IMG/VR virus record: IMGVR_UViG_2721755728_000013
Source: a virus
Lineage: Duplodnaviria > Heunggongvirae > Uroviricota > Caudoviricetes
Reading direction: 5' to 3' (one strand)
Length of the DNA stretch: 40,079 bases
Below are positions 1 to 3,000 of this stretch, one piece after another. Position numbers: made by a program. Every line of letters starts with the position of its first letter. Positions within the stretch are counted from its first letter, which is position 1.

Positions 1-3000
1 AAATAATCTCGGTGTGAGATTCCTTACGTTTTCCAAGCCCCCCTTCCTAGCCTTAAATGGAAAGATACTTCTAATTATAGAATTTATATATCTTACCCTA
101 CGGTAGGGCTGGCCATTCAATATCCGGTGCAGTTGATGTATCAACACGGTTCAGCAACACCCGATACTTTTTCCAGGCTTCCAGCAACAAGGTTTCTTCC
201 TCCGTTGCGATCTCCAGATCCACAGCATCCTGAAGCGGCGCAATATGCTCACTGGCTACCTGCATCAGGCTGTTTTTTGTTTCTTCCGCCTCCCGGATCC
301 GGAACAGTTTTTCTGCTTCCGTATCCTTCACCCAGGCTGTGCCGTTCCACTTCTGATATTCCCCTCCCGGCGATAACCAGGTAACATTTTCCGGTAACGG
401 ACCGAGTTCAGAAATAAATAACGCGTCGCCGGAAGCCACGTCATAAACCGTTTTACCCCGATGATCTTCAACGAGATGCCACGATGCCTCATCACTGTTG
501 AAAACAGCCACGAAGCCTGCCGGAATATCTGGCGGTGCAATATCGATACTGTTTGCTGGCAGACCTGTATGAGGCGGAATATATGCGTCACCTTCACCAA
601 TAAATTCATTAGTTCCTGCCAGCAGATTATAAATTTTTATGGTCCGTGGTTGTTCACTCATTCTGAATGCCATTATGCAAGCCTCACAATGTAGTTAAAT
701 GCGATGTTTTTGACAGTGTTTTCCGCGTTACCAGCAGCGTTAACGGTGATGGTGTGTCCATGTGAGCCAATCGCAACAGAGTGCGTATGAGCACCAATAC
801 CGACAGTATGTGCGTGAGCACCTGCAGATGCAGCTGTGCCGCTGACACTATGAGTGTGCGCTCCTGCAGCACTTGTATTCACACTGGCCGCAGACACTAC
901 CTTATGTACTGACCCATTTTGTGACCACTGGCTGACTGCTGATGCGCCTGTGACACTATGAGTATGGTTTCCGGCACTTGCGGCTGTACCGCTCACACTG
1001 TGCGTATGCGCCCCGGTGTTATTCGTGGATTTAGTGCCGTAATCAAACGACGATGTGGTTTTCGTCCCCAAATCCGTACTGGATGCACTGGCGCTGTGGG
1101 TGTGCGATTTAATGCCGTCCTGTTCCTGAGACAATACGGCCCGACCACTGGCAGGTTTGCCCTTAATCGTCCAGCCACGCATATCAGGGATCACGCCTGA
1201 CGGATAAGCGGTTGCAAGTTTCGGGTAAGCGGATTTGTCAAAAGTCTGCCCCTGCATCAGGGCATAACCAGACGGAACGGTATCTGATGGCCACGGGATT
1301 GGTGCGCCAGGCGGATAAAACTGCTCTGATGGTGTATAGAGTGAATAAACTGTACCGTCCGTTAACCCTTCCGGCTTATTAGCAGAATATGCTGGTGACG
1401 TATGAATAGTCACGCTGGCATTACTGGTATAATCCCATTGAATATTTACACCAGTCGCATAATTTCCGATTGCAACGTAAATATCGTAAGTATCACCAGA
1501 TGTATTGACCCAGGCAAAATTTGTAAACCCTGTCGATGTGCGCTGCCATAAAGCACCAGTAATCCCCTTCGGATTACCATTACCTGCACGCAAAACAAGT
1601 TCAGATATACCTGCCTGTTGAGGTGACCCCACGTTAAATCCCGCGCCACCAATCAACGTAATTGAAACAACAGAACTCGCCTGTGGCATGGTTACCGTTG
1701 CTAATTTGAACCAACCAGCACCACCGCTGAATGACATTGTTGTTGAGTTAAGCGTACCAATATCTTTCGGCGTCAGTGTTATATCCGCTGAAAGCGCCTT
1801 ACCATTCACCTTACGGGCAGAAGGTACCCGACCATTCGCATTATCATTAGCTGCTTTCACTGCTTTCGGTGTCGCGGCAAGCGTTTCAGATGCGCTGTTG
1901 GTTGCACTACTGAGCTGGACAATTCCTTTTTGTGCTGTCGTAGCGTCCTGAGCAGTATATTTCCCGTTAGCAAGGTCATAGGCTGCCTTTACCGACTTTG
2001 GCGTTGCCGCCAGCATTTCAGATGTGCTGTTGGTCGCGCTGCTGAGCTGAACTATCCCTTTCTGTGCTGTCGTTGCATCCTGTGCGGTGTATTTCCCGTT
2101 AGCCAGCTCATACGCGGCCTTAACGGCTTTTGGCGTTGCCGCCAGTGACTCGGAAGTGCTGTTAGTCGCACTGCTGAGCTGTACTATCCCCTTTTTCGTC
2201 GTGCTCGCATCCTCAAGCGCCACGGCGGATGCAATATCCTCTGCCCGTTTTGCCGCTGTCTCGGCGCGCGTTGCCGCGGATTCCGCCGTACTTTTGCTCT
2301 GAGCTGCCGCCGTCGCACTGCCAGCTGCCTCTGTCGCCTTCGTGGATGCCGTCGTGGCGCTGCCCTTTGCTGCTGACGCCTGTCTGGTCGCCTCATCTTT
2401 TGAAGCAGACGCAGATGATGCCGATGACGCCGCCGAACTGGCGGACGATGCGGCAGCCGTTTTTGAGGATTCTGCGCTGGTTTCCGACGCTTTCGCGTTC
2501 GTCTCGGATGTCTTCGCTGCGGAAGCAGACCTCGCTGCTGCGCTGGCCTGTTCAGTGGCTTCGCCAGCCTTCGTTGTGGCTGTTGAAGCGGACGATGCGG
2601 CGCTTTCTGCCGATTTTCCGGCAGCGGTGGCACTGGCTGAGGCCTGCCCGGCACTTGTTGACGCGGCACTGGCAGACGACGCAGCCGCTGTTTTTGAGCC
2701 TGCCGCAGCTGAGGCGCTCTGTCCCGCTGCCGTCTCAGAAGACCTGGCGTTCGTCTCGGACGTTTTTGCCGCCTTCGCGGAATTTGCTGCCGCCGTTGCC
2801 GAGGAAGCTGCGCTACTGGCGCTCGAGGATGCGTTCGTTTCTGATGATTTTGCCGCCTCTTTTGAAGCCGACGCATCCCGGGCTGAGGTGGCAGCTTCTG
2901 ACGCTTTCGTGGTCGCGGTGGATGCAGAAGTGGCGGCTGATTGTTGTGACGCTGCAGCATTCGTTCTGACGTTTTCGCGGCAGCGGCACTGGTAGCTGCC

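Follow-up and report, generated by a model that had tools for sequence, protein, structure and literature searches.

A one-base deletion, very probably inherited, splits the side-tail-fibre gene of a DLP12-like prophage of Escherichia coli

The side-tail-fibre gene (stf) of a lambda-like prophage lacks a single A, directly 3' of its codon 208, GAA (2966..2964, minus strand), where AAA is reduced to AA. The gene lies in a 40,079-nt stretch of caudoviral DNA (IMG/VR record IMGVR_UViG_2721755728_000013), here called the window, which extends from the integrase gene to tfa. Judged by comparison with related genomes, the loss is very probably a genuine, vertically inherited one-base deletion of one prophage lineage. 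Three distinct assemblies carry the same deletion while disagreeing on other lesions, and the deletion is linked to synonymous markers, which together argue for an inherited mutation. The split in stf is ordinary prophage decay, already flagged in the RefSeq annotation of the two sister genomes.

Structure of the interrupted gene

The minus strand of the window was read over 2800..3150, and the region 673..3593 was translated in three frames. The frame from the ATG at 3587 starts with MAVKISGV and reaches ...AAAKTSE before the lesion, where the minus strand reads TCA GAA CGA AT in the window and TCA GAA ACG AAT in intact relatives. Direct comparison with four related loci places the lesion at 2963..2966 (minus strand), with GAAC in the window versus GAAAC in the intact alleles. 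In a side-by-side comparison, the window and the E. coli genomes C3 and OkiPb01675 all read GTCAGAACGAAT, versus GTCAGAAACGAAT in the intact strains 2015C-3163 and O103:H2 12009. Past GAA, frame 0 continues as CGA ATG CTG (ERMLQRH...), with many Arg, Pro and Gln codons, until it stops at 2186..2184. It is the frame one base back that holds the fibre-like continuation; its first codon there is ACG (2964..2962), and it is open to the stop at 673..675. The first-pass annotation had put the last authentic GAA at 2964-2966 and the continuing frame at 2962-2964, and both positions are exact. It had also described the site as an A/T homopolymer; an A run is indeed shortened, but the run is merely AAA reduced to AA.

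The stf pseudogene occupies 673..3587 on the minus strand; its 2915 nt compare with 2916 nt (971 codons) in the intact gene, a shortfall of one base. It can be divided into three parts, all on the same strand. The authentic N-terminal 208 codons (2964..3587) include the tail-attachment domain PF08400 (residues 1-134). They are followed by an out-of-frame tail of 259 Arg-, Pro- and Gln-rich codons (2184..2963) up to the stop, giving a predicted product of 467 aa. The C-terminal 763 codons (673..2964), which lead from an Ala/Ser/Thr-rich shaft to a His-rich tip, are stranded in the -1 frame relative to the start. This stranded frame contains no start codon from the TGA at 3045..3043 to a GTG at 2223.

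Insertion of an A after window base 2964 produces a 2916-nt ORF of 971 aa, in good agreement with the single frame of about 970 codons that had been anticipated for one added A. The restored protein is identical to the product of 2015C-3163 (RefSeq WP_000279113.1) and differs by one residue from that of O103:H2 12009. At the DNA level, three differences from 2015C-3163 are left in the restored gene, all synonymous. The restored reading is further supported by the recurrence of the motif AAK[ST]SETNA at residues 203, 245, 273 and 357, which corresponds to the KTSETNA repeats seen in the first reading.

The shaft region 2184..2995 is open in several wrong frames on both strands, including the 259-codon minus-strand tail and plus-strand ORFs at 2229..2969 and 2342..2995. 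These ORFs are a compositional artefact of the GCN-rich sequence and none of them is a gene; they can be likened to orf206b, annotated opposite orf-401 in lambda.

An independent C-terminal fragment of 516 aa, starting at GTG 2223, was considered as a separate product and rejected. No sigma-70-like promoter was found in window 1..4400, there is no obvious Shine-Dalgarno sequence upstream of the GTG, and the fragment would have no tail-attachment domain. It is considered non-functional. The proper label for the locus is a frameshifted stf pseudogene, not two hypothetical ORFs, and neither the 469-aa ORF with its Arg/Pro/Gln-rich tail nor the 516-aa GTG-started ORF should be treated as a gene.

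Identity of the gene and its neighbours

The assignment to side tail fibres made in the first-pass annotation is borne out by domain content, homology and gene order. In Pfam, the restored protein matches phage_tail_N (PF08400, prophage tail fibre N-terminal) at residues 1-134 over the full length of the profile (E = 7.5e-72), wholly upstream of the lesion. All the other domains are located downstream of it: three Phage_fiber_2 domains from residue 462, Collar at 761-808 and a His-rich Phage_fiber at 856-869. In PHROGs, the restored protein falls in tail-fibre families. A tblastn search with this protein gave 72.8% identity to lambda orf-401 over 404 aa, and 68.6% to orf-314 over 245 aligned columns (query residues 758-971). 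The two matches fall in two different lambda frames, as expected for lambda PaPa.

The genes are arranged in the order J-lom-stf-tfa, all on the minus strand of the window, and the same order is found in lambda. J (4318..7716) is an intact ORF for the central tail fibre, or host-specificity protein, of 1132 aa; its counterpart is annotated as gpJ in the sister genomes, and lambda J likewise has 1132 aa. The gene lom (3652..4251), encoding an Ail/Lom outer-membrane protein (Pfam Ail_Lom, 2.3e-119), is located directly upstream of stf, as in lambda. Between the two, a consensus scan alone picked out a putative terminator-like G+C-rich hairpin followed by a T run (3604..3625, minus strand). The tail-fibre assembly chaperone gene tfa (98..673) is intact (Pfam Caudo_TAP, 1.3e-43; phrog_105), and its ATG overlaps the stf stop codon (TAATG).

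The locus thus has the domains, the homology and the gene position of a lambda-type Stf, and lacks the single uninterrupted frame. It is a pseudogene of this family and not a functional member, because the frame is broken after codon 208.

Distribution of the deletion

With megablast, window 600..3700 was compared against a set of 5426 complete genomes of E. coli. Two of them, C3 and OkiPb01675, match over an equal length (3101 nt); many others, at 99.8-99.9% identity, span 3102 nt. Over this region C3 is 100% identical to the window and OkiPb01675 has one mismatch. The exact 81-nt mutant context is present in these two genomes out of the 5426, or two of the 940 that match the region. The other 938 have at least one difference each, with 82 nt spanned in the record among the matches listed, and the exact intact 82-nt context was recovered from 118 records. 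Alignment with intact stf relatives, suggested as a check when the split was first noticed, accordingly shows one A missing from the window.

C3 was isolated from a cow and OkiPb01675 from bovine faeces in Japan. Both carry the identical stf deletion, and in both the prophage at argU is the same DLP12-like element and has matching neighbouring genes; RefSeq labels stf as a 'frameshifted' pseudogene in each (RG26_RS01425 in C3, ACZ5SP_RS02870 in OkiPb01675). At the synonymous gene positions 246 and 249, the window agrees with C3 and OkiPb01675, and all three depart from the closest intact alleles. All of these closest intact alleles, examined or among the matches listed, differ at linked synonymous sites.

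The mutant allele is rare, as an exact scan of metagenome contigs and IMG/VR with the mutant 39-mer gave zero matches in each, while the intact 40-mer was found at 51 IMG/VR loci. An ATG is present at the expected offset in 48 of these 51, and all 48 read as a single ORF; 35 of these ORFs are complete, with 806-1176 aa, and the remaining 13 run off the contig while still open. Neither the truncated forms (467 aa and 469 aa) nor the intact 971-aa protein has an exact match in a collection of 15 billion proteins.

Mutation or sequencing error

The first reading had left the choice between a genuine inactivating mutation and a homopolymer sequencing error. An error would mean that the genome has AAA and that one A was dropped at consensus calling. 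The loss of a single base from a homopolymer is a typical long-read consensus error, and the C3 assembly is not error-free, having further genes marked 'frameshifted' and a J/lom stretch that is oddly present in triplicate. A shared error is even conceivable if the sister assemblies are all long-read only, but this is hard to reconcile with the 118 intact contexts. The run has merely three bases, AAA is read in all 118 records with the identical 82-nt context, and the deletion is tied to the synonymous markers at positions 246 and 249. Nor would a consensus error in a three-base run be expected to recur in just these genomes while sparing all 118 intact ones.

The identical deletion also occurs in three assemblies that differ elsewhere. 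Compared with OkiPb01675, the window has scattered SNPs and a substitution cluster at 9891..10284, and lacks 470 bp at 29119/29120, inside a DUF968 gene of the nin region; this segment is present in both C3 and OkiPb01675. For its part, C3 (NZ_CP010119.1, locus 12549..20113) carries a triplicated J/lom stretch with truncated tape-measure and J genes, which reflects either genuine tandem rearrangement or faulty assembly. Also private to C3 are frameshifts in two genes, one gpM-like and one coding for an HTH protein. Both of these genes are intact ORFs in the window, so the additional C3 frameshifts are not common to the two, and the triplication, the truncations and the private frameshifts are absent from the window and OkiPb01675 alike. 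The first 25 kb of the window has no 100% match among the complete RefSeq E. coli genomes. The SNPs, the recombination tract (see below), the 470-bp indel and the structural differences indicate that the window, C3 and OkiPb01675 are distinct assemblies. A sequencing or assembly artefact is therefore improbable, and of the two possibilities first raised, it is the genuine mutation that stands, with three assemblies carrying the deletion and 118 intact records showing the base that was lost.

The inherited mutation looks recent, since non-synonymous differences from intact alleles are absent elsewhere in the gene. With only three synonymous differences from 2015C-3163, the pseudogene is either very young or has been kept otherwise unchanged.

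Translation across the lesion

Even with a genuine deletion, Stf of full or nearly full length could come from -1 frameshifting, programmed or leaky, or from transcriptional slippage close to the lesion. A shift of -1 would indeed bring back the frame, and between 3042 and the lesion the -1 frame has no stop codon. Within this open stretch lies an A6 run (GAA AAA AGT, 3037..3032), and tRNA-Lys is slippery on A runs. However, a search for an in-register slippery heptamer X XXY YYZ, covering 90 nt upstream and 30 nt downstream of the lesion, found none; the sole A-rich one, AAAAAAG (gene nt 551), is in the wrong register. A stretch of 116 nt, from 9 nt upstream of the lesion running downstream, folds no better than shuffled sequence, with a minimum free energy of -25.2 versus a shuffle mean of -27.1 kcal/mol (z = +0.56). 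The two-frame layout is not conserved either, being present in 2 of the 5426 complete genomes, while 48 of the 48 IMG/VR relatives with a placeable start have a single ORF. Programmed frameshifting, which the first-pass annotation had named as a finding that would overturn its reading, was thus rejected: there is no in-register heptamer, no stable downstream structure and no conserved split. Recoding of any kind is judged very unlikely.

The A6 run precedes the deletion by 70 nt and comes shortly after the TGA (3045..3043) from which the -1 frame is open. For leaky -1 slippage, no other site is conceivable. The run also occurs in the intact alleles, where slippage would be harmful, and six As are fewer than in the runs known for efficient transcriptional slippage. 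We consider it very doubtful that the lesion is leaky, whether by -1 slippage of tRNA-Lys at this run or by insertion of an A by RNA polymerase. In that event, a near full-length Stf with about 23 shaft residues replaced would be made, and a minority of virions could keep side fibres.

A phase-variable (contingency) switch, in which the A run would reversibly expand and contract to turn the side fibres on and off, was rejected as close to inconceivable: the lesion is a change in length of a mononucleotide run in a host-range gene, but the A3/A2 tract is much too short for slipped-strand mispairing to produce switching at a useful rate, the short form is clonal, confined to one closely related prophage haplotype (2 of the 940 region-matching genomes), and no further run lengths occur among the matches listed.

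Comparison with the stf lesion of lambda PaPa

The closest parallel to the inherited deletion is found in lambda PaPa, in which a stf frameshift abolishes the side fibres (PMC12617516). The two genes are homologous (73% identity to orf-401, 69% to orf-314) and share the J-lom-stf-tfa order. The lesions are also of the same type, a one-base deletion that leaves an N-terminal fragment and a stranded C-terminal fragment. In PaPa, the two frames at the lesion read ...ETNRKAHWTVRH followed by a stop in one, and ...KSPLDSPALTG... in the other, and a note in the HK630 record states 'missing C relative to Ur-lambda'.

The sites are different. PaPa loses a C near codon 393, beyond the first fibre repeat, while the window loses an A after codon 208, in the Ala/Ser/Thr-rich shaft, and lambda is intact at the site broken here. 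The window gene has 971 codons and its central portion is unlike that of lambda. The different site and sequence context indicate an independent, analogous event. The likeness to PaPa drawn in the first reading consequently holds for the kind of event, but not for its position (about codon 393 in PaPa) or its sequence context. In addition, the window event took place in a resident prophage of bovine E. coli and the PaPa event in a laboratory phage stock.

A second parallel is provided by the lambda stf mutants of Gallet, Shao and Wang (2009), which are likewise spontaneous single-base indels abolishing side fibres (PMC2762979). Of the 19 stf mutants in that study, 15 were frameshifts, which are quick to appear, and structured growth rewards low adsorption (PMC2762979). 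Plaque growth was the setting in which those mutants were selected for adsorbing poorly (PMC2762979), whereas for the window lesion neutral decay in a lysogen is an equally good explanation. Here selection is plausible as well as neutral decay, and the data do not separate the two. The deletion provides a natural parallel to the PaPa lesion and fits the picture of side fibres as dispensable and easily lost.

Predicted effect on the phage

The frameshift after codon 208 would lead to a product of 208 authentic and 259 out-of-frame residues. The authentic part would comprise the tail-attachment domain and the start of the shaft, with the other 763 codons left stranded and lacking a start codon. 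In Ur-lambda, Stf attaches to the tail through residues 1-94, which form a dodecameric collar, and uses its distal tip to bind OmpC (PMC12617516). Since the 467-aa product has neither the shaft nor the receptor-binding tip, the phage should make no side fibres, and by analogy with PaPa, the virions of this prophage would lack them.

In lambda, side fibres accelerate adsorption via OmpC 10-30 fold, with plaque numbers unchanged (PMC12617516). The outcome expected here, by analogy, is the same as in PaPa, which has no side fibres and is viable through J (PMC12617516). Infection could still be possible through the central fibre J, with slower adsorption, as for PaPa compared with Ur-lambda. The loss of 470 bp from the DUF968 gene counts against this picture of PaPa-like viability, and this prophage copy may be unable to yield phage altogether. 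The remnant of that gene is located at 28720..29239 (minus strand), and no direct repeat is obvious at the deletion junction (29119/29120). Being out of frame, the 470-bp deletion gives this prophage copy a second, private gene disruption.

The overlap of the stf stop with the tfa start suggests a further effect: termination of stf 1.5 kb upstream may reduce the translation of tfa.

The DLP12-like element

The stf deletion appears to be carried by a lambda-like prophage of the DLP12 type at the argU tRNA-Arg gene, in a cattle-associated E. coli lineage. In OkiPb01675, the element is a DLP12-like lambdoid prophage adjoining tRNA-Arg, with intD, quuD, essD/rrrD/rzpD, bor, a porin gene and nohD. 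The deletion is a clean lineage marker for one prophage haplotype, found so far in cattle-associated E. coli.

Compared with OkiPb01675, the cluster at 9891..10284 amounts to some 30 substitutions plus two indels of 3 nt, and the surrounding 29 kb is almost identical. It extends from the 3' end of the tape-measure gene into the beginning of the gpM-like gene, and looks like a short recombination (gene-conversion) tract.

Beyond window position 1, the sister genomes carry a Pin/Hin-type recombinase gene of 591 nt directly after tfa (43275..43865 in one of them) and, further on, a partial second tfa. The layout is reminiscent of stf-tfa-pin in the prophages Rac, Qin and e14.

An intact porin gene encoding 365 aa (27032..28129, plus strand) is located between the Q antiterminator gene and the lysis genes, and its counterpart is annotated as a porin in the sister genomes. 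We take its position to be that of nmpC in DLP12, of which the K-12 copy is presumably disrupted by IS5, while the window copy is uninterrupted.
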